From IMG/VR virus record IMGVR_UViG_2541047962_000003: a stretch of DNA of 41,648 nt. One strand, 5' to 3'. A program made the translations under genes and the position numbers. The stretch's first letter is position 1. Each line of letters starts with the position of its first letter. Below, piece by piece: positions 1-41,648 of this stretch. This DNA is from a virus. Taxonomy: Duplodnaviria > Heunggongvirae > Uroviricota > Caudoviricetes. The notes below the pieces were generated by a model. It was not told the DNA's origin, made no database searches, and saw only the letters and a program-made list of their open reading frames with translations.

Positions 1-267
1 ATGCGCAGAAAAGAGTCAAACGTTAGCAGTTTGCCGGAACTCACCAATTTTGAGGTAAGCTATTCTCTGGTTACCAATGAAGTTTACTTGTCTGCATCCT
101 TCACTGATAACATGGCCTGTATACCAAACTGGCCCTTACAAGAATTTCCGGATCAACTAATATGTATTTCTCGAGCAAAAGCTGTTGCCCTAATCGAAGA
201 GCTCCAGAAGACCATCGACTATATGGACGCAGGAATCGATCGACAATCAGGTAGCCTGCTCCAGTAG
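1..267 (+). CDS. Hypothetical protein, 3' end only (start may lie upstream of the window)
   Basis: Open frame running from the window edge to a stop at 267. No family recognised. Cannot tell whether it is phage cargo or host. Confidence 0.35.
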   Translation: MRRKESNVSSLPELTNFEVSYSLVTNEVYLSASFTDNMACIPNWPLQEFPDQLICISRAKAVALIEELQKTIDYMDAGIDRQSGSLLQ

Positions 268-399
268 CTGGCGAGTTTTATACTCGTTCCCTGCAACAAT
301 GGCTTTTTGTAATGCACTCACAAATAAGGAATTCGTTAAGGCTTTTGTTCTGGAGACTCTGAAAGATACAAGGAATCAGTTGATGGCTGGTTTGATCAT

Positions 400-440
400 A
401 CTAATTAATATATTGTCAGACTCACAATATATTAATTAGT
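400..440. repeat. Perfect 16-bp inverted repeat with 9-bp spacer (ACTAATTAATATATTG / CAATATATTAATTAGT); candidate operator or recombination site
   Basis: Read directly from the sequence, about 130 bp upstream of the 568 start codon in an AT-rich intergenic region. Confidence 0.6.
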
Positions 441-567
441 GGTAGAACATAAAACCGAGTTCTTGACTTTCAATAGCTATTATATGCGATCAACAACCTT
501 AACCACCTCCTTATATTTTATGAGATACTCAAACAATTTAAATTTATGAGCAAAGGAAAATAATAAA

Positions 568-1413
568 GTGAATAAAAATCCCTGGGATATTCCAGCATGG
601 CACGCTCTGGGCCGAGAAGCATCTTTAGTAACACAGCTCATTGGTTCTGGGGCAACAGCCATAGGTAAAGCCAATTATGCAGACAAAATAGGTGAATATT
701 ACACAGCATTTTTTGGGCTTTCTGTAGGTTTTGAGAGACTTGCTAAACTAATACTTGTTGCACACTATGCCATTGAACACAAAGGAAAAATGCCTGACGA
801 GAATATTGTAAGAAAATTTGGACACAAGCTCATTGAATTAACCAACGAGGTTGATAGTATTTCTAAAAAAATGCAACTATCTCTGAGATATTCACGTCCT
901 ACACATAAAATTACCTACAAAATACTTGAATGTTTAGATTCCTTTGCTGATGCCCGACGGGGACGTTACGCAAATTTCTCCTCATTAAGCAGCCCCAATT
1001 TAACCAATAATGAACCTATTAATAAATGGTGGGGAGAAGTAGCCGAGAGTATCCTTGAAAAACATTATTATTATACAGTTGAACAAAGACGTGTTGAAGA
1101 AAATGCTAGGTTTATCAATGCCACTCTTTCACCGTATACAACGGTCATGTATATGAATGAAAGTACCAACATTATGCAAGACCTTATATCAGCCTCCATC
1201 CGTACTGGACAAAATACCATTGTTCAAAAGTGGGGAAGATTCTATTCTCTTAGCATCGCTCGTTGGCTTGCCACAGTATTAGCAGAACTGTCTGATATAG
1301 CTTCTCATAAATATGGAATAATTAGTTTTTATGGCCTTAGTGAACATTGTTGCAGTTATATAGTTGAAGATAGTTTTTTAAAAAACAGAAAAATATGGCC
1401 ACTTCGCCAATAG
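568..1413 (+). CDS. Hypothetical protein, 281 aa, AT-rich orphan gene; candidate accessory or defence gene
   Basis: Long ORF with GTG start preceded by AAAGGAAAA. Visibly AT-rich compared with flanking phage DNA. No confidently recognised domain. Confidence 0.6.
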   Translation: MNKNPWDIPAWHALGREASLVTQLIGSGATAIGKANYADKIGEYYTAFFGLSVGFERLAKLILVAHYAIEHKGKMPDENIVRKFGHKLIELTNEVDSISKKMQLSLRYSRPTHKITYKILECLDSFADARRGRYANFSSLSSPNLTNNEPINKWWGEVAESILEKHYYYTVEQRRVEENARFINATLSPYTTVMYMNESTNIMQDLISASIRTGQNTIVQKWGRFYSLSIARWLATVLAELSDIASHKYGIISFYGLSEHCCSYIVEDSFLKNRKIWPLRQ

Positions 1414-1732
1414 TTAACGAGAAAATCTGCATAAGGGGGAGAAATCCCCCACCTGTAATAACATAACTACTAAAATTAACACCTTGTTCGCGCAACTCCT
1501 CCACCAGCACGACAAGATGCCGCACACTGCGCCCCAGTCTGTCCAGCTTCCAGACAACCAGCGTATCTCCTTCTGATAGCGTTCTGAGCAGTTTTTTCAA
1601 TCCCGGTCTGGCTGATTTTGTTCCGCTGATTTTATCTTCAAAAATCAGTTCACATCCTGCGCACTCCAGCGCGTTACGCTGCAATTCTGTATTCTGGTCA
1701 TTTGTTGATACGCGGACATAGCCAATAAGCAT
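1337..1732 (-). pseudogene. Gin/Pin/Hin-family serine DNA invertase, truncated; only the N-terminal ~87 residues (about 1472-1732) are invertase-like
   Basis: N-terminus MLIGYVRVSTNDQNT...LVVWKLDRLGRS matches the invertase catalytic domain. After ...REQGVNF the frame continues into unrelated sequence, and the helix-turn-helix C-terminal domain is missing. Confidence 0.8.
1435..1450. terminator. Hairpin GGGGGA-gaaa-TCCCCC, possible bidirectional terminator between the orphan gene and the invertase remnant
   Basis: Perfect 6-bp stem with tetraloop 22 bp after the stop at 1413. No strong T-tract on the + strand, so weak. Confidence 0.3.
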
Positions 1733-1787
1733 GATGGATCCCCTGAATAAAAACCGGGGATGATGCCAGTTAGCCGTAATCTCTGCA

Positions 1788-1814
1788 TTTTCTTAAACGT
1801 TGGTTTGGGAGAAG
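1788..1814. repeat. Invertase crossover site (gix/pix/hix-like), invertase-proximal
   Basis: TTTTCTTAAACGTTGGTTTGGGAGAAG. Its reverse complement shares the 15-mer CTTCTCCCAAACCAA with the site at 3645-3670, in inverted orientation. Resembles the hix/gix AAACC-NN-GGTTT core. Confidence 0.65.
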
Positions 1815-2134
1815 CGGCAAAACGAAATGTGGGAACAGGGGAAAATCAGATACCTGATATGTCATCATATGCATCAGGTTCAGGCTGGCGAAAAATGCCA
1901 GATGGTTCAATTGAACAGTGGGGACGAATTAGTTTTCCTGGTGAACACGGGCCTGTATCCGCCAATGTTTCATTCCCAATTCCATTTACACAGACACCGG
2001 GCATTGTAATTGTGTGCGATGGTGGTTTCGGGGGCGGGAATATGTGGGGGGCGACCAACTGGAGCACTACCGGCTTCATAGCTCACTGCAATTATGGTCT
2101 TGAAGGTGGTGCGTTTTTCGCTAAGGGCTGGTAA
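1800..2134 (+). CDS. Alternative tail-fibre C-terminal (receptor-binding) cassette, promoterless, silent in this orientation
   Basis: The frame encodes ...[10 protein letters not shown]... across the crossover site, paralleling ...ENLGLGEG... in the expressed fibre. Followed directly by a tail-fibre assembly gene. Confidence 0.6.
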
Positions 2135-2577
2135 TGATGAAATATCTGTACGTAAACAACCTGGCATATCCTTACGAACTTCAGTCTCTTTATGTTGAAA
2201 AAGGTGAATGGCCTGAAGAAAAAGGTGTTGATATAGACGAAGTAATTTTCAGGGAATATTTCTATGATACACCACCAGAAGGAAAATACAGATGTGTCGG
2301 AGAGGATGGACTGCCTGCATGGGCAGATATTCCTCCACCAACACGTGAAGAACAAATTGCATCAGCCGAAACTAAAAAGCAGCAATTGATTAACCAGGCC
2401 AACGAATACATCAACAGTAAACAATGGCCAGGTAAAGCATCAATTGGTCGTCTGAAAGGTGAGGAACTGGCGCAATATAATTTGTGGCTGGATTATCTGG
2501 ACGCACTGGAACTGGTCGATACTTCCGGTGCGCCAGATATTGAATGGCCTACGCCTCCGGCAGTTCAGGCCAGATGA
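2134..2577 (+). CDS. Tail-fibre assembly protein (alternative cassette)
   Basis: 147 aa. Position and C-terminal similarity to the 2549-3151 product (both end in ...D-[IV]-[IE]-WP-[TE]-[PL]P...). Tfa-like. Confidence 0.7.
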   Translation: MMKYLYVNNLAYPYELQSLYVEKGEWPEEKGVDIDEVIFREYFYDTPPEGKYRCVGEDGLPAWADIPPPTREEQIASAETKKQQLINQANEYINSKQWPGKASIGRLKGEELAQYNLWLDYLDALELVDTSGAPDIEWPTPPAVQAR

Positions 2578-3151
2578 CGTCCGGCGCTGTGCTGGTATCT
2601 GTTGCCGTCACCGCGTCAATGTAATCCAGCACAGCGTTAAGTCGGGTGTTTTCTGGCTGCGTCAGCTTCCGCCCAGCCTGTAATTTCAGTTGAATCAGAC
2701 TGATGGAAGCCATTGCAGCATCAATCAGCGACTGGCGCTGTGCTTCTGCCGCTTCTACTGCGGCGCTATGCTGTGCCTCGGTATCGGTCACCCATTTCTC
2801 ACCATCCCATTTATCGTATGGCGTTAATGGGGCGATAGTGGTTGTATTTTCGGGGTAATCACCCGGAGTTGTGATTTCTTTGGCGTCTCCCGTTTCGGTG
2901 TTATAGACGATTTCTCCGCGATGGTCTGGCACATATTCCCATGAGTTTAAATCCGCAGAGCGGCAGATGGCATAACCAGCTTTATATGTTCCTGGTGCAT
3001 CTAAACAGGAACATGCCGGAATACCGACACCAACAGCAAGATATTCAGTTGATGTGGAAATATATTCTCGTGTTTCACCATTATAATTATAGACAGTAAT
3101 ATCCCCCGCCTTCGTGGCAATAAACTCGCTATTTAATACGGCATTATCCAT
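2549..3151 (-). CDS. Tail-fibre assembly protein (expressed cassette)
   Basis: 200 aa, immediately downstream of the tail-fibre gene. Tfa-like. Confidence 0.75.
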   Translation of the reverse strand: MDNAVLNSEFIATKAGDITVYNYNGETREYISTSTEYLAVGVGIPACSCLDAPGTYKAGYAICRSADLNSWEYVPDHRGEIVYNTETGDAKEITTPGDYPENTTTIAPLTPYDKWDGEKWVTDTEAQHSAAVEAAEAQRQSLIDAAMASISLIQLKLQAGRKLTQPENTRLNAVLDYIDAVTATDTSTAPDVIWPELPEA

Positions 3152-4014
3152 TATGCAGCCCTCACGATGTAATTAAATGAAAGGTTACGAGGGCGCATTG
3201 ATATCCATGCCCCGGTAAAATTATCCTCCGCTGTCCTTTGAGTACCCGTTATGGAGTTATCTGCTGATGCAGGAACATAATCGCTATTATTTCCTGCTTT
3301 AGGATTAGCTGGGTTTCCAACAGTTATAACAGAATCAGCAGTAGCAAAAGCGATACCTACTTTGACATTAGTATTCAGATCGTAACCGTAATAATCCTGC
3401 AAAGCTGTACGAATAAATGTTGCAGCCTGACCACTTAGCAATGAACGCCCCGTATCAATCCCTCTAGAATCATCCCAGCCACGAATAAACTCACCACGTA
3501 AATCAGGCAATTTATTTGTCGGGTAAGCCTTTGCCAGTTCCGGGTATTCTTCAGCAGAAAAAGCTGCTCCGTTGCATTTCAGCCAGCCTGTTGGAGGTGT
3601 CTCTGAAGGCCACGGAACAGGTGCACCAACAGGTAATGCTGAACCTTCTCCCAAACCAAGGTTTTCGAGAGCCGTTTTCACCGTGCCATCCGATTTGATA
3701 TCACCAAACGGATTCTTGCGGCTCAGGTATTCAACAGCAAACCCCGATCCCAGCAATTCAACAAAACCGGGCAGATCACCATTATCAAGCACATCCCGTT
3801 GCGTTTTATCACTTACAAACTGGGCCAGAGCTGCAGCAATAAAGCTGGCCTGCCGAATAACCTTATTGACTTGCGCACTGGAGGCTTTCCCTGCTGTAAA
3901 TCCAGATAAAAGCGCAGGCAACGCTTCCCATTCCTCCTGCGACATAACATTGGCATTTTTACCCGTTGCGAATGCTTTAAAGTCATTTTTTGCCATCAGA
4001 GTAATACTCCCCAT
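3151..4014 (-). CDS. Tail-fibre protein (constant N-terminal part joined to a variable C-terminal part at the crossover site)
   Basis: 287 aa. The crossover site lies in-frame within ...[11 protein letters not shown].... e14 StfP-like arrangement. Confidence 0.75.
3645..3670. repeat. Invertase crossover site, distal, inside the tail-fibre gene
   Basis: CTTCTCCCAAACCAAGGTTTTCGAGA. Inverted copy of the 1788-1814 site. Confidence 0.65.
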
Positions 4015-4676
4015 GCCCCTAGATCAAAACCACTGATAAATTCGTTATCCATATCAAAACCAAAAAATTTTGAACCTTCCGATGGGGTTTCCACCGAAGG
4101 TGTTTCAATGCCACCCGCCCACACCCCGGCGGCTTTTACTGTGAGATATCCCTGTTTAATTGCAGCAATTAACTCACGCGATACATCTGAAATATCAGTA
4201 TCAGGAAAGACCCAGACCGATATCGTCATGTCCTGGTTATCGACAATCTGCATTCGCAGTCCGGATCCTGCTGTTGCAGCGTCAAGGATTGCCGGAAGCG
4301 AATCATTCCGTCCGTCCCAGTTATTAATCGCAATCTTCGCTTTAAGAATGACACGATAAGTTTCATCGCTGAGATACATGTATCCTGAATCAGGATCATA
4401 TGGCCCCTGCCATACCCCCTGATCATATCCAAGCCCGTCGGTATCCCAGCGGAAATAGACACCTGAGATAGGCTGGCTGACAACACGGCTACGTCCGATC
4501 CACAATCCAAGAATGTCAAGTTGCACACCAACCGCAGAGTCAATATCAAATACAGTAATCAGCCCTCTGGTGGCAGCCGCAACATCAATAAGCGGCCGGG
4601 TCATCAGATCAACATGTGCAAGAAATTTAGGTTTGGTGGCGTGGTAGTTCGTGATTAGTTCGGTGTATTTGCTCAT
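3996..4676 (-). CDS. Tail protein (YmfQ/DUF2612-like)
   Basis: 226 aa, between the baseplate J gene and the tail fibre as in e14 (jayE-ymfQ-stfP). Confidence 0.55.
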
Positions 4677-5872
4677 GACTCCACCGTTATAACGATATTT
4701 TCCGGGGTACAGGACGCAGATTCGTTGTATCTGATATCAATGTTTGATGACGACAAAGCCCCCGGGGATTTCCCAATCGTCAGTTCCTGAATATCGTAAT
4801 AGCGTGCATTCCCGCCACTCACCACGCCAAGATTCGCCGGTGAGTAAATGCGACTCAAAAGGACCGAATCACCAATCGTCAGACTATTGATATAGTCGGA
4901 AATAGCCTGCTGGATCTGCTGTCCTATCTGTGAGGTATAACCCGTAAAAACTTTTAATTTAATCCGGGCATAAACAGGCACATCACTGGAACGCGAGAAT
5001 TTGATTACATGGGGATTGCCGTATTTATCCGGAACCGTAACGGATGTTGTACCGTGAGTGGCTGTCCCCTGGCCTTTATTCCCTCTGATAGCCTGAGCAA
5101 TATCCGTCACATCACCGCCATCCACAATTACAGCAACAGAGTGTGGCGGTAATCCGTTACCGTCCTCCGAACCAGTATCGTTTTCATAGAGTTTGTGGCG
5201 GGTTACACCGATAACATTAGAAACAGCACCATCCAGTGCTTCAAATGGGGTTAATGATGGCAACGCAACACTTTGCGACTGGCGGATACGTAACTCAGCG
5301 TCAGTTTCTGCCGGAGTGCCCACAGTAGCCGCAGCAGGATTAGTTACCGAAACCCAGCCACGGGTTGGCGTATTAATTTCAGTGATAGTTCCAGCCAGCG
5401 CCGCCACTGCACCACTGACGGAACATGTTGCGGTCACCATCACTGTACCATCCACGCCGACCACCACTGAAGCAGGCAAACGCCATATCACATTATTACT
5501 GTCTTTCACGCTGCCATTAATGATGGTTGTTCCGGCAGTTCCTGTAAGAAGCAAATCAACCGTAGAGTTCGTCGCGCCTTTACGTGAAATACCATTTATT
5601 TTCACGTTACTGGTCAGTGCAGCCCCATAGCCGGTTGCCGGTGAAAAACAGTTGTAGACAGTTATCGCCATATTATTGGCATCATGAATCGCCAGCGCCA
5701 TCAGAGCCACCATCTGGCCGTCTTTGCTGTCCGGTTCGAGGTAGGCATCACTGCCATAAATCTGCTGAAAATAGCTAATCAGGGTGCTGAGTATCGTCTG
5801 ATAATCAGGCGCACTGATCCCCTCCGCGGTTACCTTTGCAGATAAACCGAGAGAATCAAGGTTCAGAGCCAT
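4673..5872 (-). CDS. Baseplate J-like protein
   Basis: 399 aa. Size, position and family-level resemblance to baseplate J (gp47/JayE-like). Confidence 0.7.
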   Translation of the reverse strand: MALNLDSLGLSAKVTAEGISAPDYQTILSTLISYFQQIYGSDAYLEPDSKDGQMVALMALAIHDANNMAITVYNCFSPATGYGAALTSNVKINGISRKGATNSTVDLLLTGTAGTTIINGSVKDSNNVIWRLPASVVVGVDGTVMVTATCSVSGAVAALAGTITEINTPTRGWVSVTNPAAATVGTPAETDAELRIRQSQSVALPSLTPFEALDGAVSNVIGVTRHKLYENDTGSEDGNGLPPHSVAVIVDGGDVTDIAQAIRGNKGQGTATHGTTSVTVPDKYGNPHVIKFSRSSDVPVYARIKLKVFTGYTSQIGQQIQQAISDYINSLTIGDSVLLSRIYSPANLGVVSGGNARYYDIQELTIGKSPGALSSSNIDIRYNESASCTPENIVITVES

Positions 5873-6225
5873 TACGCCTCCGATGTAACAGTCGTTATTC
5901 CATAGAGAGTGTCGATTTCAGCGGAAAACATGACACGTCGGGTCGTGGTATCCACCGTCGTATTGAAAGAGAGGATTGATTTAACGCCCTGCGTTTCCAG
6001 AATGCGCTTACGGATCGCCAGGTTGTAGGTTTCCGGCTTCTGCTTACCGAGTACGGACTGGATCCACGGAGTCCCCTCAGTGGTGTCGAGAAACCATTGC
6101 CCATACCACAATTCGAATCGCGTTTTTACCGCCTGCGCCACGGCCTCCGGTGAGTTAATCAGCCAGGTGTCATCACCGCTGCCAAAGGTGTAATCGCCAT
6201 CGGCGTCTTCACGTCTGTATCGCAT
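5872..6225 (-). CDS. Baseplate wedge protein (gp46/W-like)
   Basis: 117 aa, translationally coupled upstream of the baseplate J gene. Confidence 0.5.
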   Translation of the reverse strand: MRYRREDADGDYTFGSGDDTWLINSPEAVAQAVKTRFELWYGQWFLDTTEGTPWIQSVLGKQKPETYNLAIRKRILETQGVKSILSFNTTVDTTTRRVMFSAEIDTLYGITTVTSEA

Positions 6226-6977
6226 CAGTTTACTCCGTCGGTATTGCTTCCACCGCGCTGAACACCACCATGAGTGTGCGTATCATCGATTGGCTTGCCG
6301 TTAGCCTTCACGCTACCCAAAAACTCAACAGCACCAGTGATTTTTGAAGCCACACCAGAAACAACAGACCCCACCATGCCTCCCATCCAGGTTAACAGGC
6401 CATGAATGGTTACTTTCTCAGAAAAATCAGCCAGAGGGGCAACCACATCAAGGCCCCCCGGAGCGACAATTTTAATTTTCCTGGTATCAGGATTAAGCTC
6501 AAAATAGGTGCTGCCGTCATCACTACGCAACTGTGTGGCACTGGTATTAATACCGCTAATCTTCCTTGCCTGCGACTGGGGACCGACAATACAAAACGCA
6601 TCCGATAAATCATGCATTCTGTCATCGACCGGCTCCTGTATCCCGCCACTCTGCCACCAGAAATCAATACAACGATCGGCAAAAATCACCAAACATTCAT
6701 CACCGGCTTTAACTGGAAACGTTAGCGTACAGCCTCCGCCACGCGGGAATACCACTGGCACATCCACCAGCAATGGGTAATTTTTGGTAATGCGGTTGCC
6801 GTCGTTATCAATTTCAACGTAACGGATAGCAGGCTGTACAACCGCCGTCACCGCATCAGGAGCGAATGACTGAATAATGCCAGGCAAGGCGACACGGATC
6901 TGGTTCTTTGTTGTTTCCCGTTCAGATTTGAATGTTTCGGCAAGGTCGCCGCTGCGGGTCTGGTCAGATACGGCCAT
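6225..6977 (-). CDS. Baseplate spike/hub assembly protein (gpV-like)
   Basis: 250 aa, first gene of the baseplate block. Call is based on position. Confidence 0.45.
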   Translation of the reverse strand: MAVSDQTRSGDLAETFKSERETTKNQIRVALPGIIQSFAPDAVTAVVQPAIRYVEIDNDGNRITKNYPLLVDVPVVFPRGGGCTLTFPVKAGDECLVIFADRCIDFWWQSGGIQEPVDDRMHDLSDAFCIVGPQSQARKISGINTSATQLRSDDGSTYFELNPDTRKIKIVAPGGLDVVAPLADFSEKVTIHGLLTWMGGMVGSVVSGVASKITGAVEFLGSVKANGKPIDDTHTHGGVQRGGSNTDGVN

Positions 6978-6997
6978 TTAGTAGGCTCCAGAAAGCA

Positions 6998-7019
6998 AAA
7001 AACCCGCCGAAGCGGGTTT
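6998..7019 (-). terminator. Rho-independent terminator after the inserted cassette
   Basis: Minus strand reads CAAACCCGC-ttcg-GCGGGTTTTTTG: GC-rich stem followed by a U-tract, 16 bp after the stop at 7035. Confidence 0.65.
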
Positions 7020-7034
7020 GAAAGGATGTATGGA

Positions 7035-7607
7035 TTATTTAGGTTTCTTCCTACCATAAACAAACACTGTAGTTAATCCTACGAGATCTAAAGTAGCAAG
7101 AGTACCTGCGAACCAAGTGTTACCGCGATTAGCAAAAAACGCAGCCATTATAAGCACTACCATTGCAATGCAAAATCCCATCCATTGCCCACGTTTGTCG
7201 CGTGAAACCGCACCAAGTAATGCATCACTTTGCGTCTTATGCCTATGCTCTTGCTCTTTTTCGGTTAGCCTGAAAATTCTCTCAGCGCCGCCGGGTAATA
7301 TTTGATTATATTGTAAGAGCATAGCAGGAGGTGGGAGTGGTCCCTGAAAAGACTCCTGCTGAAACATGGCAATAACCTTCGGGTTCTTAGAAACTCTCTC
7401 AAGAAGTTCAGGTGTTAACTTCGATTTTAGCTCAGGATCAAGGTTGGCAACTGCAGACAGCTTTTCCACTACTTCCTGAGACTCATCATATTCCGAGGAA
7501 TCAATATCTTCGTCGATACCATCCGAATCAGGAACGGCTTTTTGCGACGCTTTGTTTTCCTGATGCTTTTTGAGAACGGCCGCCTGCTTGCGGGGTTTTG
7601 AACTCAT
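7035..7607 (-). CDS. Membrane-anchored protein, DUF2335-like (C-terminal transmembrane helices); start codon uncertain
   Basis: 190 aa. Motif ...LPGGAERIFRLTEKEQEHRH... followed by two hydrophobic helices. Overlaps the upstream small ORF by 80 bp; an internal GTG with an AGGAAG site is an alternative start. Confidence 0.55.
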   Translation of the reverse strand: MSSKPRKQAAVLKKHQENKASQKAVPDSDGIDEDIDSSEYDESQEVVEKLSAVANLDPELKSKLTPELLERVSKNPKVIAMFQQESFQGPLPPPAMLLQYNQILPGGAERIFRLTEKEQEHRHKTQSDALLGAVSRDKRGQWMGFCIAMVVLIMAAFFANRGNTWFAGTLATLDLVGLTTVFVYGRKKPK

Positions 7608-7767
7608 ACCTGATAACTCTGTTCATGTCACTTGCAATGACTTTAACATCACTTCTTATTGCCCGACAATCAGATCCAGAAGCAGCATATTGCCAGTAAT
7701 CTGTAGTCGGCATAATGTCCATAACACTACCGGCAGCGGCTAAGTAACGATTAACGATTTTCCTCAT
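7528..7767 (-). CDS. Small hypothetical protein (about 80 aa)
   Basis: ATG at 7767 preceded by a strong GGGAGGGG ribosome-binding site. No recognisable domain. Confidence 0.35.
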   Translation of the reverse strand: MRKIVNRYLAAAGSVMDIMPTTDYWQYAASGSDCRAIRSDVKVIASDMNRVIRYEFKTPQAGGRSQKASGKQSVAKSRS

Positions 7768-7932
7768 ATCCCCTCCCATAGTGAACATCAGTGGAGCGCA
7801 GAGTTTACCTTTAAGGTAAAGTATAGACAACTACTGTGTACAGATGGTTCAAAAAATGCGTTAACCAGTATTATTTTGTTAAATTTAGCGCAATTGGCAA
7901 CAGTTCATCCATAATATTATGGACGTCAAAAA

Positions 7933-8277
7933 TCATCGCCCAGCCACTTTTTTACAAGGGAAAGATCCGATGATTTTCGGCGCATCCATGCTGTTCTGCA
8001 GAAGCTGGACATTCAGGAATCGCGTTTCGGTACCAGGGCGACGAATGTATTCAAAGCCGTAGTTGTTACCGTCTTTGGCAGGCATAAGCCCCATGTCTAC
8101 TTTCAAACCATTGGTACCCAGTTCGGTGATTTTTTGAGAGGTAACTCTTTCACCGTTGATAGTCGATAACTCGCCCTGGTTTGCAACCATAGTGTAGCCA
8201 CCGCATTTAACCGTGAAGCCATCCGCCCACGCGCTGCACGCAGAAAAGGCAGCTAACAGAAAAATAATACCCCTCAT
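7933..8277 (-). CDS. Secreted protein or lipoprotein with N-terminal signal peptide (114 aa)
   Basis: N-terminus MRGIIFLLAAFSACSAWADG has a hydrophobic core with both a possible lipobox Cys and an AxA cleavage motif. Confidence 0.55.
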   Translation of the reverse strand: MRGIIFLLAAFSACSAWADGFTVKCGGYTMVANQGELSTINGERVTSQKITELGTNGLKVDMGLMPAKDGNNYGFEYIRRPGTETRFLNVQLLQNSMDAPKIIGSFPCKKVAGR

Positions 8278-30242: not shown

Positions 30243-30392
30243 ATGAAACCTGAACACCTCTATCGACTGACGGGGCGCGATGTTCTCCGTTATCGCCGTA
30301 AAAACTTCGATTTGATGACCGGTCTGGCCGTTGCCACTGCGCTCGGTCTGATCATCACTTTCATTCTCCTTGTAGCGAGGACCACAGTATGA
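30243..30392 (+). CDS. Small membrane protein (49 aa, C-terminal transmembrane helix); below the ORF-track size cutoff
   Basis: Hand-translated as [57 protein letters not shown] ribosome-binding site. Stop overlaps the next start. Confidence 0.4.
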   Translation: MKPEHLYRLTGRDVLRYRRKNFDLMTGLAVATALGLIITFILLVARTTV

Positions 30393-31291
30393 GTTTAGAA
30401 ACCAGTCTCGAACTTAATAATCAACTTCTGGCACAACATAATGCGCTGCTTGAACGTCTTATCCGCACAATGGCATCAGGTATTGTTATGCATCCTGACA
30501 CGATTTCACGAGTGCAGGAATGTCGGGATACAGCAACTGAAACTGAAAATATGTCAGCGGCAATGACACTGGATGATCTGGAGTTCAGCGACGTTATCGC
30601 ACTGGCTGGTTTCTACCCGGTAGCCACCCCTATCACAGAAGACATGCTGCAACGTGCTGTTGCCTACCGTGATGCTGAAGGCGATAAACGAGTAGTTCAG
30701 ATTGATGCTCTCGACAGCGCATTGCAGGGCGTCAAACGAGCCAGGGCGCTGCTTAAACCAGCTCTCCTGGACCTGTCCCGTAACATCCTTAAGTTCTGGG
30801 ACGACCTGCCAACCATCGGCGAGCGGCGTGCTTTTGCCGAGCAGCTACTTGATGCACCTGCGGATGGGCGTGATGAAGTTAAGCCGAAAAAGGCCAGTAA
30901 CAAAGATGGAGAACGCACGGGGCCGTTTTACGTCAAAAATGTATCCGGCACAGCAGCCAGTGAACTCCACACCTTACGCAAGTTGAACGAGATGCTGAAA
31001 AAAGGCCATATCGAGATCAACCGTGTTGAGTACCTTCAGCTGCAGGAAGAATTTGCACGCAGAGACGCAGCAAATTCCAGCCAGAATAATGACGCCAAAG
31101 ATGACCATACAATTGATTTCGCGGCACTACGCAAACAAGCTGAAGGGTTGATCCTCCAGTTAGCAAAAGGGGGTTACCGGGCAGAAGCTATTGCAATTCT
31201 GGAAAAACAGGGAGCCAGGAAACTTGGTGAAGTAACGGATGAAAATCTCGCTGAAGTAATCACCCTGGCTGAAAAAGCACTGGAGGGTTAA
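30389..31291 (+). CDS. Hypothetical early protein (300 aa)
   Basis: First large ORF of the + strand early operon. No domain recognised. Confidence 0.55.
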
Positions 31292-31293
31292 TC

Positions 31294-32595
31294 ATGCCAG
31301 ACGTTCATGCACAACTTTCTCCATCATCAGCGCATCGATGGATGCGCTGCCCAGGAAGTCTGGCGCTGGAGGCTACACAACCGGATAAAGAAACAACTTT
31401 TGCAATCGAGGGCACTGCAGCGCACGCGCTTGCTGAAAAAGTTCTACGAAACAGGCAAAGCCATCCGGAACACTACGCCGGATGCAATGTTTCTATGTTT
31501 CTCGGCTCATACCCCCTTCGCGAAAATCCTGATGATACATCTGGCCCACAGGTGGATGATGAAATGGTCGAAGCCGTTGGCCGGTATGTTGATACGGTCT
31601 GGACTCTTGCACAGAATAATGAACTATTGGTTGAACAACGTGTTGATTTCTCACATATAACGGGTGTGGAAGAATCTTTCGGAACTGCCGACGGCATAAT
31701 CATCGCGGGTAACGAATTACAAATCCACGACCTGAAATATGGCAAAGGCGTCCGCATTGATGCAGAACAAAATGAGCAACTACAACTGTATGCTCTGGGT
31801 GCGCTCGAACAATTCAGCATGCTGTATGACTTTGAGACTGTAAGATTATTTATTCACCAGCCAAGGCTCAACCACGTTTCAGAATGGTCGTTAACCGTAC
31901 AGGAACTTCAGTCTTTCGGTGAACGGGCACAGGAGGCCGCAACCAGTGCGATCCTTGTTCTCAATATTGCTGAATGCGAAGGCATTGAGACACTACCGCT
32001 GGAAAACTTCATACCTGGAGAAAAACAGTGCCGCTTCTGTAAAGCAAAAGCTATTTGCACTGCCCAGAAAATGCAGCATTTACAAACAGCGGCCAGCGAT
32101 TTTGAAGATCTGACAAAGCCTGTCAGCGAAATAATCACCAATGCCAGTGCACGTGTACCTCTGTTAACCATTGAGCAGCTTGCGGAGATCTATAGCCAGG
32201 CCGACTTTATTGAATCCTGGCTAAAGGCAGTACGGGACCGGGTTCACAATGAACTCAATGCCGGACATCCGGTACCGGGGTTTAAACTGGTAACAGGAAA
32301 ACAAGGTAACCGGGCCTGGATTGATGAAGAGGCAGCTCGCGCACTTCTGAAGGACCAGTTCAGGTACAAAACTGAAGAAGTATTCGACTTTAAACTTATT
32401 AGTCCCACAAAAGCCGAAAAACTTATCAAAAAGGCCAGTCCGCGCCGTTGGTCAAAAGTCGAGGCACTGATAACACGAGCTGATGGTAAACCCACCGTCG
32501 TTCCCGAGTCAGACCCACGCCCCGCACTCAATATCAACCCTGTAAATGATTTCGACGACGTATCCGACGATACGCTAACCGCAGACCTCATCTGA
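31294..32595 (+). CDS. DUF2800-like PD-(D/E)XK nuclease (Cas4/RecB-like fold)
   Basis: N-terminal ...[15 protein letters not shown]... signature and clustered C-terminal cysteines. Confidence 0.6.
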
Positions 32596-32610
32596 TTTAA
32601 GGAAATACCC

Positions 32611-33159
32611 ATGAAACTGAAGCTGAACAATGTTCGTCTGGCCTTCCCGTCTCTGTTTGAAGCTAAAACAGTAAACGGCGAAGGCGATCCACGTTTCTCC
32701 GCAGTATTTTTAATGTCACCCAAACACCCACAACTGGAAGAAATCCGTAAAGCTATGAAGCAGGTAGCGAAGGAAAAATGGGGGGAGAAGTGGGAGTCCA
32801 TTTATAACCAGCTGGAGAAAAAACTCAATCTGTGCCTGCATGATGGTGATGAAAAAGCAGAGTATGAAGGCTTTCCCGGCAATTTCTTCCTGAACGCTGC
32901 TAACAAAGCGCGCCCAGCTGTTCTTGATCGCGATCGTTCGCCACTAATTCAGGCTGATGGACGTCCCTATGCAGGGTGCTATGTAAACGCCGTTATCGAT
33001 ATCTGGGCACAGGACAATAATTTCGGTAAACGCATTAATGCCTCACTCGGAGGAGTCCAGTTCCTGCGAGACGGCGATGCATTCGCTGGCGGCGGAGTGG
33101 CAAGCGCTGACGATTTCGACGATATCAGCGAAGGTGCTGATGCTGAAGCACTAATTTAA
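32611..33159 (+). CDS. DUF2815-like single-stranded DNA-binding protein
   Basis: 182 aa with acidic C-terminal tail (…DDFDDISEGADAEALI), between the nuclease and polymerase genes. Confidence 0.5.
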   Translation: MKLKLNNVRLAFPSLFEAKTVNGEGDPRFSAVFLMSPKHPQLEEIRKAMKQVAKEKWGEKWESIYNQLEKKLNLCLHDGDEKAEYEGFPGNFFLNAANKARPAVLDRDRSPLIQADGRPYAGCYVNAVIDIWAQDNNFGKRINASLGGVQFLRDGDAFAGGGVASADDFDDISEGADAEALI

Positions 33160-33210
33160 AAATATTCATCCCCCAGCTACGTGCTGGGGTATCTCATGAG
33201 GGAAAGAATA

Positions 33211-33852
33211 ATGTCACAGCCCGTATTAACTAATCACCTTAAAACTCAAATCATCAATAACGCACTTGAGAAAGCGGGTATCCCCAAACGTAAATCAGCA
33301 CTACGAGCTGCTCGTGTTGAATGGGCCGAACGTGTTCGGCTTGCAGCTATCGGGGGCGTAGAGAAAGAAGCTGAAATATTAAAAAATATAAAAAAGATTG
33401 AATCCATGGTAACAAAAATCCCTGATTCATTAAAAACCAATAGTTCTTTAATTCGAAAAGATTGCTGCATATATCTCAATCTGGCTGGAGCCAGAGCAAA
33501 CATTTATTTCAATGGCAACTACAGAGGTTATGAATCAGGAGCCCCCGAGCATATTAATAAAATAGCACCTGCAGAATTTACTCTACTTGGCGAAGATCCT
33601 CTGGTAACGGAGTTTTATAGCTTTGATGCTCTCTACACACAAATTAAAAGTGATGAAACCGAAATCATACAGAACGTCAGCGCGGCTCTAAATAAAGTTC
33701 GGACAGTAAAACGATTACTGGATGTATGGCCCGAAGCTAAAGAACTGCTTCCAACAGACGCACCGCCAGTCCCTTTAGCACCAGCAGTACATCGAGAGAC
33801 ATTAAATGAAATGATAGGCCTTCCTACCAATACAGTGTCTGATACTCAATAA
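33211..33852 (+). CDS. Hypothetical protein, AT-rich
   Basis: ATG at 33211 preceded by GAGGGAAAG. No domain recognised. Confidence 0.5.
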   Translation: MSQPVLTNHLKTQIINNALEKAGIPKRKSALRAARVEWAERVRLAAIGGVEKEAEILKNIKKIESMVTKIPDSLKTNSSLIRKDCCIYLNLAGARANIYFNGNYRGYESGAPEHINKIAPAEFTLLGEDPLVTEFYSFDALYTQIKSDETEIIQNVSAALNKVRTVKRLLDVWPEAKELLPTDAPPVPLAPAVHRETLNEMIGLPTNTVSDTQ

Positions 33853-34535
33853 CAAGGGGGATGCTTATTATATGATTTTGAACGTTTTACAATCTCGTTA
33901 AGAGGCGTGAAATCAAAATCTCTGAATAACACATCAGGATACTTCGCTCTTGCTTTATCCAGCAAACCAGTTAAAGTATTTTTTGTGTTACCCAACATTG
34001 TATTAACCGCCACTACATGTCTAATTTCTGGAGGTTTATCTATACCACCAGAAATTGCTTCATTAAGAACCGACGCCAGTGGGGTTTGTCCCTTACTTGT
34101 TGAATCCCACAGCGTCATTAACAGACGAGCTGCGTCTATAAATAGCTTTTTGTCAGCATTTGGCTTGACAGTAATACCAGAACTACCTGAGCCAGAACCG
34201 GAACGTTCTATTGCTGCACTGGTATCCGATTTCATAGGATTAAATAACGGCAGCTCTGTACAACCGATACGCCGAATGAAATCCTTTGCAACATCTCTAC
34301 CACAGAAAAAAGCCCCTGTACAATTTTCATCAGAGCGTTTTTTAAATGAAAAACAATAGTACTGATCGGTTAACGGATAACCGGAATAACTGGTTTTAGT
34401 TTGTCCAGTAATAAGTTTCAGGTGTGCAACAGGCTGAATAATAAAATCCCGAACTATCGCATCTTTTATGTCGTTACCACGGTGACAATAATATTCAGGT
34501 AATCCATTAGGCTGTCTCTTATTACCCACAGTCAT
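33846..34535 (-). CDS. Hypothetical protein (229 aa) with Cys/His-rich N-terminal region and Ser/Gly linker; antisense to the early operon
   Basis: AT-rich. Convergent with the preceding gene (7-bp overlap). Divergent AT-rich promoter region shared with the polymerase gene. Confidence 0.5.
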   Translation of the reverse strand: MTVGNKRQPNGLPEYYCHRGNDIKDAIVRDFIIQPVAHLKLITGQTKTSYSGYPLTDQYYCFSFKKRSDENCTGAFFCGRDVAKDFIRRIGCTELPLFNPMKSDTSAAIERSGSGSGSSGITVKPNADKKLFIDAARLLMTLWDSTSKGQTPLASVLNEAISGGIDKPPEIRHVVAVNTMLGNTKNTLTGLLDKARAKYPDVLFRDFDFTPLNEIVKRSKSYNKHPPCY

Positions 34536-34596
34536 TAGTTGTCTCCTTTAATTCATGATATCTAGCATTTAACCATATACCATATGAGGATATTTT

Positions 34597-36660
34597 ATGT
34601 CCAATATACTATGGGGCGACCTGGAAACCTATTGTGACATTCCGATCAACAACGGTACCCATGCGTATGCCGAAGGCGTTGAAGTGATGCTTTTCGCATG
34701 GGCTATCAACGACGGGCCAGTAAACGTGTGGGATATCACTGCCGGTGGTGGTATTCCACACGGCTTATACGAAGCAATCGCAGACCCTGAAACCCTGCTT
34801 TATTTCCATAACTCTCACTTCGACCGCACCGTTCTGCGTTATGCAATGCCGCGACTGGCACCGCCAGTCGAACGTTGGCGCGACACGATGGTGCAGGCGC
34901 TGGCGCACGGTCTCCCGGGGTCTCTGGGGGAACTCTGCGAAGTACTAGGCGTCCCGCAAGACAAAGCGAAGGACAAAGAAGGTAAAGCGCTGATCCAGCT
35001 GTTCTGTAAGCCACGCCCGAAAAACAGCAAACTGCGTCGGGCCACCAGTAAAACCCACCCGGAAGAATGGCGGCGCTTTGTTGCTTACGCCGGACTGGAT
35101 ATCGAGGCAATGCGCGAAGTCTATAAACGTCTGCCGAAGTGGAATTATCAGGGGACAGAACTGGCGCTCTGGCATCGTGATCAGCAGATCAATGACCGGG
35201 GCGTCTGCATGGACATGCAACTCGCACGCGCTGCGATCGAAGCGGTAGACCAGGAACAAAAGCGCCTAGCAAAGCGTACACAGGAAATGACTGATGGCGA
35301 AGTGCAGGCAGCCACACAACGAGACGCGTTGATTAAGCACATTGTTGAATCCTACGGTGTGGAGCTACCAGACATGCAACGCAGTACTCTGGAACGTCGT
35401 ATTGCCGACCCCGATTTACCATCTGCCGTGAAAGAACTGCTGGCTATCCGCCTGCAGGCCAGTACTACCAGCACCAGTAAATACAAGGCACTGATGAAAG
35501 GCGTAAGCCACGACGGGCGCTTACGCGGTACGCTACAGTTCTGCGGGGCGTCACGTACCGGTCGTTGGGCCGGACGGCTATTCCAGCCCCAGAACCTTCC
35601 CCGCCCTTCACTAAAACAGGAACAAATAGACGAAGGCATCGAAGCACTGAAAGCCGGATGTGCAGACCTGCTGTTTGACAATATCATGGAACTAACCAGT
35701 TCAGCGTTACGTGGCTGCATTATCGCGCCAACAGGCAAAAAGCTGGTGGTAAGTGACTTGTCGAACATTGAAGGCCGTATGCTGGCATGGCTGGCGGGAG
35801 AAGAATGGAAACTGAATGCATTCAGAGAGTACGACGCCGGAACGGGTCCGGACTTATATAAACTGGCGTATGCAAAAGCTTTCGATATTGCACCAGATGA
35901 TGTTGATAAACACATGCGTCAGATCGGTAAAGTCATGGAACTCGGTCTGGGTTATGGTGGTGGTGTGTCGGCCTTCATCACTTTTGCACTGGTTTACGGT
36001 CTCGATCTCGACGAGCTGGCGAACGCCGCACTACCAAACATTCCCCGCGATGTTATCCGCGAGGCGAAAAGCTGGTACGACGAATCGGTTAAACGCAAGT
36101 CAACCTACGGGCTTTCTGAACGGGTATTTATCGCCTGCGACTCACTTAAACGTCTCTGGCGCAGGGCGCACCCGGCGACCTGCGATTTCTGGTACGAACT
36201 GGAGCGCACCGTCCGCACAGCAATCGCCACACCGCAAAAAACATTGTATTGCGGCTATCTTAAAATCCGACGTGATGGCGCGTGGCTGCGCATACAGCTA
36301 CCATCCGGACGCGCTGTATGCTACCCGTCTCCGGTTATCGAAAAAGGGAATATCACCTACATGGGTGTTAACTCTTATTCGCGTAAATGGCAACGACTCA
36401 AAACCTACGGCGGAAAGCTGGTGGAGAACGTCACCCAGGCAGCCGCCCGCGACGTTCTGGCCGGAAACATGCCGCTTATCGAAGATGCCGGTTACAGCAT
36501 TGTGTTGACGGTACACGACGAGGTGATCACCGAAGCACCTGACACAGAAGATTTCAACGATAAAGCGCTTTCCGCGCTTCTCTCCACTAACCCCGAATGG
36601 GCACCCGATATCCCACTGAACGCTGGCGGTTTTGAGGCGTACCACTACCGTAAGGATTAA
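34597..36660 (+). CDS. Family A DNA polymerase with 3'-5' exonuclease domain
   Basis: ...GDLETYCD... exonuclease motif, ...[16 protein letters not shown]... motif B-like, ...VHDEV... motif C. Confidence 0.85.
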
Positions 36661-36665
36661 CTCCT

Positions 36666-36881
36666 ATGTCATTTAAATACCGGGACAATCCACTTTATTA
36701 CAGGGCCGCAAGGGAGGCTTTGCGACTTGAACAATCCGGCGAATATGACCGGGCAGCGAAGGTCTGGGCAAAAGCCAACCGCGAATCACATCACGAATTG
36801 AATCAGGAATGGAGTGAACGCAGATCTGATTTTTGCCTGATGCAGAATATGCGTGAAAAGCGTAAGGTGGTCGAAGAATGA
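36666..36881 (+). CDS. Small hypothetical protein (71 aa)
   Basis: ORF translationally coupled to the downstream gene. Confidence 0.4.
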   Translation: MSFKYRDNPLYYRAAREALRLEQSGEYDRAAKVWAKANRESHHELNQEWSERRSDFCLMQNMREKRKVVEE

Positions 36882-37177
36882 TCGTTTACGTTGCCGGGCC
36901 GATGAGCGGTTACGAGCAATTTAACCGCCCGGCTTTTCATTCCGCAGCAAAGAGGCTAACGGACAAGGGATATGTTGTGCTTAACCCCGCAACTTTACCC
37001 GATGGTTTGACACAGGCTCAGTACATGGACATCTGCCTCGCCATGCTTCGCTGTGCCGATACGATTTATATGCTCAAAGAGTGGGAGTACTCTGCCGGCG
37101 CACGTGCAGAAAACGCGTTGGCAGAGAAACTGGAATTGAATGTGCTTTTTGAAGAGTGGGATTCAGATGGCCTATGA
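36878..37177 (+). CDS. DUF4406-like (nucleoside 2-deoxyribosyltransferase-like) protein
   Basis: ...VYVAGPMSGYEQFNRPAFHSAAKRL...VLNPA... matches the family signature as recalled. Confidence 0.55.
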   Translation: MIVYVAGPMSGYEQFNRPAFHSAAKRLTDKGYVVLNPATLPDGLTQAQYMDICLAMLRCADTIYMLKEWEYSAGARAENALAEKLELNVLFEEWDSDGL

Positions 37178-37436
37178 ACGTGAAAGCCTTATCGAAAAGC
37201 ACCTCGTCGCTGAAGTGAAAAAAGCTGGCGGAGTGGCCTTTAAGTTTGTATCTCCCGGTCACCGCTCGGTACCGGATCGCATTGTCCTGCTACCCGGTGG
37301 TCGTATCGTTTTCGTTGAATGTAAATCCCCCGGCAAACCACCACGGCCTGACCAGTTGCGCGAGCATGAACGTCTGCGAAAGCTGGGCTTTACCGTGGTA
37401 GTACTGGATAGCAAAAATTTAGAGGGGATATTGTGA
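37167..37436 (+). CDS. VRR-NUC domain nuclease
   Basis: ...GRIVFVECKSPGKPPRPDQ... motif. ATG overlaps the upstream stop. Confidence 0.65.
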   Translation: MAYERESLIEKHLVAEVKKAGGVAFKFVSPGHRSVPDRIVLLPGGRIVFVECKSPGKPPRPDQLREHERLRKLGFTVVVLDSKNLEGIL

Positions 37437-37441
37437 GACAA

Positions 37442-38167
37442 TCATTCTGAGCGATTTTTCTTGAGCTTAGAAGCTTTTAAAAAACATACTTTTAGTTGTT
37501 GTGTTTCTTTTATGCTTACAGGAATTAATTTCCCCTCAATTCCTTCGACACTCATAAATTCAGAGCTATTTTTTTTACAGTTCCCCAAGACAAATTTTCC
37601 GTTATAGCTTTCGATAATATAAGCATCATATTTTTTAGAATAAAAAAGAGGCTCATCTGATAAGTATGCCCATGCCCACCCAAGGACTGAAGGAAGCATT
37701 GCTATGGATATAAAAAACATAACCCCATGAGTTTTGTTTTTTATTCTAAATTCATTCCTAATAAAAACAGATACTGCCCTGACACTGATAGGGCTAATAA
37801 ATCCCAATAGTATTGCTTGGGTAGCCACATCCCTTATGGATTTTTCATAAAGGTATGAGCTACCGCCATATAAATACATTGTCCAGTATGAAAGCAAAGA
37901 GGCCAAAATGAAGAAAAATAAATACACCCCCCATGGAATATTCTTCTCTTCAGTATCAATATGCAGCAAAGCGACTAAGGTGCACAAAAGTCCTAATGCA
38001 ATAACAGAAAACTTAACTATTTCCTCAATCCCAATAGAAATAAAACTTACAGGGAATCCATAAAATGAGCTGTATCCTTTGTAAAAAGAAAAAGCCATAA
38101 AATAAAGGGCGGCCAAGAGAACCGTTGTAATTGATAAATCTTTTACATTCATGATGTTCAAGAGCAC
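37442..38167 (-). CDS. Polytopic membrane protein (241 aa), very AT-rich, antisense to the early operon
   Basis: Four to six hydrophobic helices. Inserted between the VRR-NUC and SNF2 genes on the opposite strand. Confidence 0.55.
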   Translation of the reverse strand: MLLNIMNVKDLSITTVLLAALYFMAFSFYKGYSSFYGFPVSFISIGIEEIVKFSVIALGLLCTLVALLHIDTEEKNIPWGVYLFFFILASLLSYWTMYLYGGSSYLYEKSIRDVATQAILLGFISPISVRAVSVFIRNEFRIKNKTHGVMFFISIAMLPSVLGWAWAYLSDEPLFYSKKYDAYIIESYNGKFVLGNCKKNSSEFMSVEGIEGKLIPVSIKETQQLKVCFLKASKLKKNRSE

Positions 38168-38190
38168 CTTTCTAATCAGGGATTTTCTTC

Positions 38191-39582: not shown

Positions 39583-39779
39583 GCGAGAAACCCGACGATT
39601 TACTCACCCCGGATGAAGTATGCCAAAAGTTAGGTATTACACAGAAAACGCTATGTGAGTGGAATATTAAGCATCGTCATCGGGCTATCCTGGCACCAAT
39701 TCGTTTCAGTGCAAAAGTAGTTCGTTATGAGCGCCGAAATGTCGACGCTTTTATTCAAAAATGTCGCAGCCAGTATTAA
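39579..39779 (+). CDS. Excisionase / AlpA-like helix-turn-helix protein
   Basis: 66 aa. ...LLTPDEVCQKLGITQKTLCEW... Converges on the integrase gene. Confidence 0.55.
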   Translation: MSEKPDDLLTPDEVCQKLGITQKTLCEWNIKHRHRAILAPIRFSAKVVRYERRNVDAFIQKCRSQY

Positions 39780-41173: not shown

Positions 41174-41179
41174 TCTCAA

Positions 41180-41648
<469 letters not shown>

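Follow-up and report, generated by a model that had tools for sequence, protein, structure and literature searches.

Does an invertible tail-fibre segment still turn when the invertase gene beside it is broken? The question is raised by a SEN34-like myovirus prophage of ~41 kb, which is inserted at yfhL in Escherichia coli MS20658 and has the switch region at its end. An original prediction for this locus described inverted crossover sites bounding two opposed tail-fibre cassettes and a truncated invertase, and held that the segment should be fixed unless another invertase acts in trans. We examined the locus within the window, i.e. the whole stretch of 41,648 nucleotides (41.6 kb) that was analyzed, and compared it with complete E. 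coli genomes.

A repeat search revealed 20-nt inverted-repeat arms at 1795–1814 and 3645–3664 with 95% complementarity. With at most one mismatch allowed, the 41.6-kb window contains two copies of the 19-mer TTCTCCCAAACCAAGGTTT, against 0 in 100 shuffles; the palindromic core AAACSWWSGTTT is confined, within the window, to the two crossover sites. The left site (26 bp, pixL-like, 1788–1813) reads TTTTCTTAAACG TT GGTTTGGGAGAA, with its central dinucleotide at 1800–1801, and the right site (26 bp, pixR-like, 3646–3671) reads TTCTCCCAAACC AA GGTTTTCGAGAG, with its central dinucleotide at 3658–3659. Like other Din-family sites, the two are inverted, imperfect dyads with an identical 2-bp core (TT/AA). 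They match the left and right sites of the K-12 element e14 at 25 of 26 and 26 of 26 bases, respectively. The left site is kept in all 12 related loci examined, and the right site falls at codons ...LGLGE within the fibre gene. Between the central dinucleotides, the invertible segment measures 1860 bp (1800–3659). A multi-segment shufflon was ruled out, given just two crossover sites in 41.6 kb.

The segment holds two opposed sets, each made of a fibre C-terminus and a chaperone. On the minus strand, the tail-fibre gene in the expressed position (3151–3996, 281 aa, RefSeq WP_021580412.1) matches Pfam Collar and PHROG tail-fibre families; its constant N-terminal 117 aa (3646–3996) lie outside the segment and its variable Collar-domain C-terminus (3151–3645) lies inside. 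Its cognate chaperone is TfaE (2549–3151, minus strand, 200 aa; Caudo_TAP, 5e-32; phrog_105; RefSeq tfaE). On the plus strand, a silent, gp53-like alternative C-terminus (1802–2134, 110 aa from GLGE; Pfam PF21882 and PHROG tail-fibre families) adjoins the invertase remnant in the present orientation. It belongs to an open reading frame that starts at ATG 1760 (1760–2134, plus strand), the 5' part of which is a lead-in outside the segment, and it is followed by its own 147-aa assembly chaperone (2134–2577, plus strand; Caudo_TAP, 4e-33; phrog_188). Both fusions to the constant N-terminus are in frame: the first 117 residues, ending ...ENLGLGE, are common to the two fibres, and the alternative fusion is annotated as a 223-aa protein, WP_046960514.1, in strains M-17 and A4. 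Both cassettes are intact open reading frames in all 11 truncated loci examined, which carry at least 5 cassette combinations.

The adjacent Pin/Din-family serine invertase remnant (1466–1732, minus strand) comprises codons 1–89. Pfam Resolvase matches residues 3–89 only, spanning profile positions 2–98 of 145. The catalytic serine (in VRVSTNDQ) and the DRLGRS motif are retained, whereas neither helix E nor the helix-turn-helix DNA-binding domain is left, so that of the parts of a complete serine invertase (catalytic domain, helix E, helix-turn-helix) codons 1–89 alone remain. The remnant shares 81 of 89 residues with K-12 PinE and is the same as an intact 199-aa invertase (a protein of this length is encoded in strain 300709) up to F87, diverging thereafter. 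Similarity to intact invertases ends at 1466, after codon 87–89 of 184–199, which is also where DNA homology to other pin genes begins. Beyond the homology, the frame continues to 1337, giving a 131-aa open reading frame of 89 invertase residues and a 42-residue unrelated tail; RefSeq annotates the remnant as a pseudogene with its C-terminus missing. In place of the 3' half of the gene lies other DNA (568–1465, plus strand) with a 281-aa open reading frame of an uncharacterised family (568–1413) and a GC hairpin (1435–1450), the truncation junction being near 1465.

The architecture originally predicted is thus borne out. The repeat search and shuffles agree that inverted sites bound the segment, and the alignment to the pix-type sites of e14 places them in the predicted hix/gix class; Pfam and PHROG matches support opposed cassettes, each with its own assembly gene. 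The in-frame crossover is substantiated by the 117 common residues and the real fusion protein of M-17. The lack of the C-terminal DNA-binding domain is confirmed by Pfam and by alignment, and the loss extends to helix E.

A query across the junction was covered end to end in 43 of 5,426 complete E. coli genomes, and the 281-aa open reading frame at 568–1413 is 98.6–100% identical across 44 genomes. All loci agree almost perfectly at the junction and over the first ~70 nt of the remnant, which rules out independent truncations; the remainder is mosaic, and the neighbouring remnant has diverged by 10–16% among loci with the common junction. The remnant open reading frame is unbroken in all loci examined. 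Because the same junction recurs in 43 genomes, the truncation must be old and of one origin: these alignments show a single origin for the junction and indicate that it is older than the 10–16% divergence of the neighbouring remnant. The prophage lost its own invertase in a single, ancient event, in which foreign DNA with the 281-aa gene took the place of everything past codon 89.

Both orientations of the segment are found behind this inactivated gene. Since each assembly gives one orientation per genome, the comparison is between genomes and not within cultures. The prophages of MS20658 and M-17 are 99.98% identical over 38 kb (8 substitutions); the flanks of the switch show 0 differences, and the 1860-bp segment of one is the exact reverse complement of that of the other, so that reverse-complementing 1800–3659 in silico gives the M-17 sequence exactly over 5 kb. 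A4 has the same side as M-17. Two further pairs, C10 with C11 (segment of 1604 bp) and 8D with 97-3250 (1613 bp), also carry exact reverse complements between flanks that are otherwise alike. Across the three inverted pairs, each flank shows 0–1 differences per 1.5 kb, and the breakpoints fall within the 15-bp identical core that holds the central dinucleotide. Three independent pairs are therefore related by exact reverse complementation between the cores, as expected of inversion by core exchange. The presence of both orientations behind a common junction implies that the segment flipped repeatedly after the truncation; the aligned pairs show at least three exact inversions since then. The prediction that the segment is fixed consequently fails for the element as a whole and holds at most for MS20658, where no second invertase was found.

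In order to identify an enzyme that could act in trans, we searched for further invertases. Within the 41.6-kb window, there is no other serine recombinase, tblastn with two intact invertases matching the remnant alone. By blastn, sensitive down to ~65–70% identity, no second Din-family invertase was detected in the MS20658 chromosome, and a protein-level search and the annotation gave none on its only plasmid. Tblastn and annotation accordingly rule out a further invertase gene within the window and on the plasmid, and the search of the genome for Gin/Pin/Hin homologues that the original prediction had called for detected none on the MS20658 chromosome at the DNA level or on the plasmid at the protein level. 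Elsewhere, as counted by a DNA search of chromosomes with a chimeric query (the plasmid search covering MS20658 alone), the C-terminal half of an invertase is matched at one or more further places in 16 of the 44 junction-bearing chromosomes and at none in the other 28. There are three such matches in M-17, one each in C10 and C11, and two in 97-3250, and hence at least one member of each inverted pair has a further C-terminal half. No second invertase was detected by blastn in the A4 and 8D chromosomes, which suggests that their orientation was inherited or was set in a previous host. Likewise, with no detectable enzyme in MS20658, the segment is probably static there and the Collar-domain fibre probably the one expressed. 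The inversions were most likely catalyzed by trans-acting Din-family invertases. The proviso of the original prediction, that an invertase might act in trans, is in this way favoured by the data, and it has precedents in EC958 Phi4 (PMC4134206) and PinQ (PMC12529663).

In Din-family systems the enhancer lies in the 5' part of the invertase gene. The cis-acting parts are all still intact here: the two sites, the two cassettes, and 267 bp from the 5' end of the invertase gene. The Hin enhancer is located ~100 bp from hixL (PMC3798978), a distance that maps to ~1700 in our locus, inside the remnant. The region 1535–1814 is 100% identical to the matching part of an intact invertase locus. In a stretch of 325 bp where eleven 15-mers reach the threshold, it was possible to place a weak Fis-like pair, its two motifs 48 bp apart and centred 97.5 and 145.5 bp away from the centre of the site. 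These observations are consistent with an enhancer that may be retained and functional. A promoter and terminator scan of 1–4200 gave nothing above shuffled expectation. The lineage has long been without its own invertase, yet it keeps its sites, a putatively enhancer-bearing 5' stub, and two intact, often renewed cassettes.

Taken together, the locus is likely a host-range switch of the e14 P-segment type (Din family: Gin/Cin/Pin/Hin) that has become an orphan substrate, flipped by Din invertases supplied in trans. The late operon would read through the constant part of the fibre (117 N-terminal residues) into the C-terminal receptor-binding cassette and chaperone that happen to face it, at present probably the Collar-domain cassette with TfaE. 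If the 26-bp sites recombined at their central dinucleotides, the gp53-like cassette and its own chaperone would be brought into that position. Such a segment would flip when another prophage in the same cell, a P1-like plasmid, or a superinfecting phage provides a compatible Din invertase, and would otherwise stay static.

Could the switch instead be truly locked, with no inversion since the truncation and with orientations that predate it or came by recombination? The prophage's own invertase is dead, the 28 chromosomes without a further C-terminal half fit this view, and both remnant and cassettes have been overwritten by recombination, so whole-module replacement happens in this lineage. 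However, the three pairs combine 0–1 flank differences per 1.5 kb with exact reverse complements between the site centres, and the junction common to them predates the 10–16% divergence of the neighbouring remnant. Moreover, an imported inverted copy would require a donor that matches every base and that must itself have inverted. We consider a locked switch very unlikely. RecA-dependent homologous recombination acting on the short inverted repeats, with no site-specific invertase involved, also seems to us a very unlikely source of the inversions. In its favour, the repeats are identical over 15 bases (19 of 20 overall), the comparative data place the exchange at some point within the core, and no second invertase was detected on the chromosomes of A4 and 8D. 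Nevertheless, lengths of 15–20 bp are below those required for efficient RecA recombination, and three events among about a dozen loci, with little other change (the 8 substitutions per 38 kb of MS20658 and M-17), are difficult to reconcile with such a process. The repeats are also bona fide Din crossover sites, as in e14, where flipping by an invertase in trans is documented (PMC12529663).

The 131-aa remnant protein might itself contribute to inversion, e.g. in mixed complexes with another protein, as its unbroken frame in all loci examined and its retained catalytic serine and DRLGRS motif could suggest. We regard such a contribution as extremely improbable, given the absence of helix E and of the entire DNA-binding domain. 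Helix E forms the dimer and tetramer interface of serine recombinases and, to our knowledge, these enzymes cannot bind their sites or undergo synapsis without helix E and the DNA-binding domain. The frame can stay intact without selection on the protein because the remnant is mosaic through recombination with intact genes.

An orphan segment flipped in trans has consequences for how such loci are read. A truncated invertase beside an invertible tail-fibre segment should not be annotated as a dead switch. At least three flips of the segment have followed the truncation, and a single assembly is therefore not enough to establish orientation or fibre type. Din switches can live on as orphans by relying on the invertases of other mobile elements, linking the host-range plasticity of a phage to the other residents of the same cell. 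A more tentative, and on balance doubtful, extension is that selection maintains a free-riding switch: host range would be varied through polylysogeny, with prophages or P1-like plasmids sharing their enzyme, and the truncation would be tolerated since it spared the enhancer. Systems of this kind and the principle of activation in trans are already published, and the advance here is modest.

Among known systems, the G segment of Mu with Gin and the C segment of P1 with Cin work by the same type of mechanism: a serine invertase recombines 26-bp sites and swaps fibre C-termini along with their chaperones, under an enhancer within the 5' end of the invertase gene. Unlike the present element, Mu and P1 encode a working invertase, and their site sequences and fibre families are different. 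Din-family invertases reportedly cross-complement (Sandmeier 1994, as cited in PMC4134206). The closest match in layout is the e14 P segment with PinE, which has the same order (invertase, silent fibre C-terminus, tfaE, tfa, fibre, baseplate genes), a similar size, and a crossover in the GLGE motif of the fibre. In e14, a complete 184-aa PinE is followed by mcrA, whereas here the gene ends after codon 89 and the 281-aa gene occupies the place of the 3' half of the invertase and of mcrA. Furthermore, e14 is a defective element at icd, and the prophage studied here, at yfhL, is a complete SEN34-like myovirus.

Action across elements has been described for PinQ of Qin, which inverts the e14 segment (PMC12529663), and, as Kutsukake 2006 is cited in PMC4272514, for Fin of Fels-2, which acts on the Salmonella H segment. 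In these cases, as we propose here, the invertase of one prophage flips the segment of another element in the same cell; those targets keep their own invertase too, whereas the present one would be wholly reliant on outside enzymes. In EC958, Phi4 has a truncated invertase without the helix-turn-helix and both segment orientations in PacBio reads (Forde et al. 2014, PMC4134206), and its authors proposed that the invertase of another prophage inverts the segment in trans (PMC4134206). It resembles our locus in its invertible tail-fibre segment, in the adjacent invertase without helix-turn-helix, and in the occurrence of both orientations. Phi4 is nevertheless a different prophage, with sites of the TTATCGAATACC TC GGTTTACAGGAA type and a segment of 3.1 kb, and, unlike EC958, the source strain MS20658 has no candidate trans invertase detected. 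The evidence in EC958 is read heterogeneity in one culture, whereas ours is a between-genome comparison; with 44 genomes, several cassette sets, and one junction, the present locus adds a population-scale example to that single-strain case.

The invertible tail-fibre arrangement proposed in the original prediction was borne out. We found an inverted repeat with 20-nt arms (1795-1814 and 3645-3664), complementary at 19 of 20 positions; a 19-mer search gave two matches in 41.6 kb and none in 100 shuffles, and the palindromic core has no copy in the 41.6-kb window beyond the two sites. The left 26-bp site (1788-1813; TTTTCTTAAACG TT GGTTTGGGAGAA) and the right one (3646-3671; TTCTCCCAAACC AA GGTTTTCGAGAG) equal the sites of the K-12 prophage e14, whose region we retrieved, at 25/26 and 26/26 bases, respectively. 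Between them, in opposite orientations, lie two cassettes: one pairs a gp53-like fibre C-terminus (1802-2134, plus strand) with a 147-aa Caudo_TAP chaperone (2134-2577, plus), the other a Collar-domain fibre C-terminus (3151-3645, minus) with the 200-aa TfaE chaperone (2549-3151, minus). The constant fibre N-terminus (3646-3996) stays outside the segment, and either cassette continues in frame from its 117 shared residues, which end in ENLGLGE.

The adjacent invertase gene was said to lack its C-terminal DNA-binding domain, which we confirm, and helix E is absent too. Of the ORF at 1337-1732, only residues 3-89 match the Resolvase catalytic domain; an alignment with the intact 199-aa invertase that a P2-like prophage carries in strain 300709 shows identity as far as F87 and no relationship beyond it. 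DNA homology with all other pin genes starts at 1466, and RefSeq annotates the invertase as a pseudogene without a C-terminus. Because the stub (1466-1732, minus) has neither helix E nor the helix-turn-helix domain, it is predicted to be incapable of site binding or synapsis.

To the left of the stub lies a 281-aa gene (568-1413), and between the two, directly left of the truncation junction, a GC hairpin (1435-1450; GGGGGAGAAATCCCCC) may be a terminator that arrived with the inserted DNA. The gene has 486 homologues across distant Proteobacteria, each of about 280 aa and 56-74% identical, which together form a widespread family without a name. The protein has no match in Pfam, PHROGs, PADLOC or NCBIfam, and Foldseek found nothing with its AlphaFold model (pLDDT 83). 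Within the family H86 never varies and R82 hardly does, an R-x3-H spacing one residue under the canonical Rx4-6H, and the Enterobacter homologue has a type I restriction system on one side and an integrase on the other. On this thin evidence, the gene is a candidate for single-gene defence carried by a prophage. A near-perfect palindrome at 400-440 (20-nt arms, 95% complementary, 1-nt gap; ACTAATTAATATATTGTCAG / CTCACAATATATTAATTAGT), located between an 88-aa ORF and the 281-aa gene, shares bases with promoter-like hexamers on both strands and may be an operator. The 88-aa ORF (1-267, plus), at the prophage end, matches phrog_17793 of unknown function (E 1e-45), and its counterparts in related prophages are annotated as hypothetical proteins.

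The window is 100% identical to Escherichia coli MS20658 (NZ_CP082075.1) and holds nearly the whole of a prophage lying between yfhH and yfhL. The integrase (39776-41179) is followed by replication, lysis, head and contractile-tail modules; the opposite end carries baseplate genes, one tail-fibre gene and the invertible feature. An 18-bp direct repeat, AATTGTGATATGTGTGAA, occurs at both prophage ends, at 41418-41435 inside yfhL and 226 bp before the window (2775-2792 of L001, a locus compared); it is likely the attachment-site core, and its position shows that the window starts about 210 bp within the prophage. The nearest classified phage is Salmonella phage SEN34, and a relative of the prophage group has been reported to be a temperate myovirus from urinary E. 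coli (PMC12945033). The early region (30389-39582) encodes a DUF2800, DUF2815, DNA polymerase, VRR-NUC and SNF2 replication set, includes a putative Nmad5-family nucleotide-modification gene (33211-33852), and is mosaic in strain A4.

Comparison with other genomes indicated that the truncated element has inverted. Strain M-17 has this prophage inserted at the same site in the chromosome (99.98% identity over 38 kb), with no differences from the window in 1-1799 and 3660-8000, and its segment is the exact reverse complement of 1800-3659; an in silico inversion of the window between the central dinucleotides gives the M-17 sequence at every base. A4 has the M-17 orientation. Between C10 and C11, a 1604-bp segment is inverted with no differences in 1.5 kb of each flank, and between 8D and 97-3250, a 1613-bp segment is inverted with 0 and 1 flank differences. 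The exchange point falls within the 15-bp identical core that holds the central dinucleotide, as expected for Din-type recombination. These are independent events, since the three cassette sets are unlike one another. Between MS20658 and M-17 there are 8 substitutions over the 38-kb prophage versus 9 differences in 3 kb of adjacent chromosomal genes (L001 and L002 flanks); because the prophage is far more alike than its neighbours, the comparison suggests recent horizontal spread rather than vertical inheritance.

All three inversions are later than the common truncation. Of 5,426 complete E. coli genomes, 43 cover a junction query (1250-1790) over its full length, and the 281-aa gene is present in 44 genomes (98.6-100% identity). 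The truncation arose once: every truncated locus in the alignment across the junction has near-identical sequence there and over the remnant's first ~70 nt. From about 1487 or 1540 on, the remnant, the left-site flank and the cassettes form divergent mosaic blocks that switch between alleles (seen across 1466-1814 and related loci L003, L004 and L013-L018). Since some blocks match intact invertase loci of other, P2-like prophages at every base, recombination with live pin loci has rewritten the stub and cassettes repeatedly after truncation. At least five cassette combinations stand behind the one junction, and both cassettes are intact ORFs in all 11 truncated loci examined; both crossover sites are kept in all loci compared. 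In C10 and C11, the baseplate module past the fibre is also of another type (YmfQ/e14-like).

The original prediction that the switch is locked thus fails for the element, being contradicted by three exact post-truncation inversions, but probably holds for MS20658. On that chromosome, searched at the DNA level, an N-terminal invertase query matched only the remnant and a C-terminal query had no match; neither the annotation nor tblastn shows an invertase on the sole plasmid (72.9 kb, IncF), and tblastn found no second one in the window. Because no other invertase was found in these searches, the segment is probably static in this strain, with the Collar-domain fibre expressed. RecA-mediated exchange between the 15-20-bp repeats could also invert a segment, but is unlikely given three events with hardly any other change at bona fide e14-type sites. 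Residual activity of the 131-aa remnant, whose frame is intact, is implausible: helix E and the DNA-binding domain are both absent, and recombination with live genes accounts for the frame.

Din invertases (the Gin/Cin/Pin/Hin family) cross-complement one another, and we infer that they flip the segment in trans. Using a chimeric query (the 281-aa gene joined to the C-terminal half that the stub lacks, taken from an intact invertase), we found at least one further match to that half in 16 of 44 chromosomes (three in M-17, one each in C10 and C11, two in 97-3250), and such a match occurs in one or both members of each inverted pair. The cis requirements also appear to be in place: 1535-1814 is identical to an intact invertase locus, and a weak scan placed two Fis-like motifs with their centres 97.5 and 145.5 bp away from that of the site, a spacing of 48 bp. 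The Hin enhancer region lies ~100 bp from its site (PMC3798978), a distance that corresponds to ~1700 in the window, within the retained stub.

The kind of system is already known, and the advance is modest. In how it works and, its dead invertase aside, in its make-up, the feature is a Din switch of the e14 P-segment type; the gene order is shared, whereas in e14 the place of the 281-aa gene and the GC hairpin is taken by mcrA and the remainder of pinE. The e14 segment is itself inverted by PinQ of prophage Qin (PMC12529663). In EC958, the invertase of prophage Phi4 lacks the helix-turn-helix domain, yet both orientations occur in PacBio reads, which the authors ascribed to the invertase of another prophage (PMC4134206). 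Our element parallels Phi4 in being an orphan switch that would be flipped in trans, and adds population-scale evidence (one junction, 44 genomes, at least three post-truncation inversions), cassettes still being renewed behind a single junction, and a strain, MS20658, without a detectable helper enzyme.
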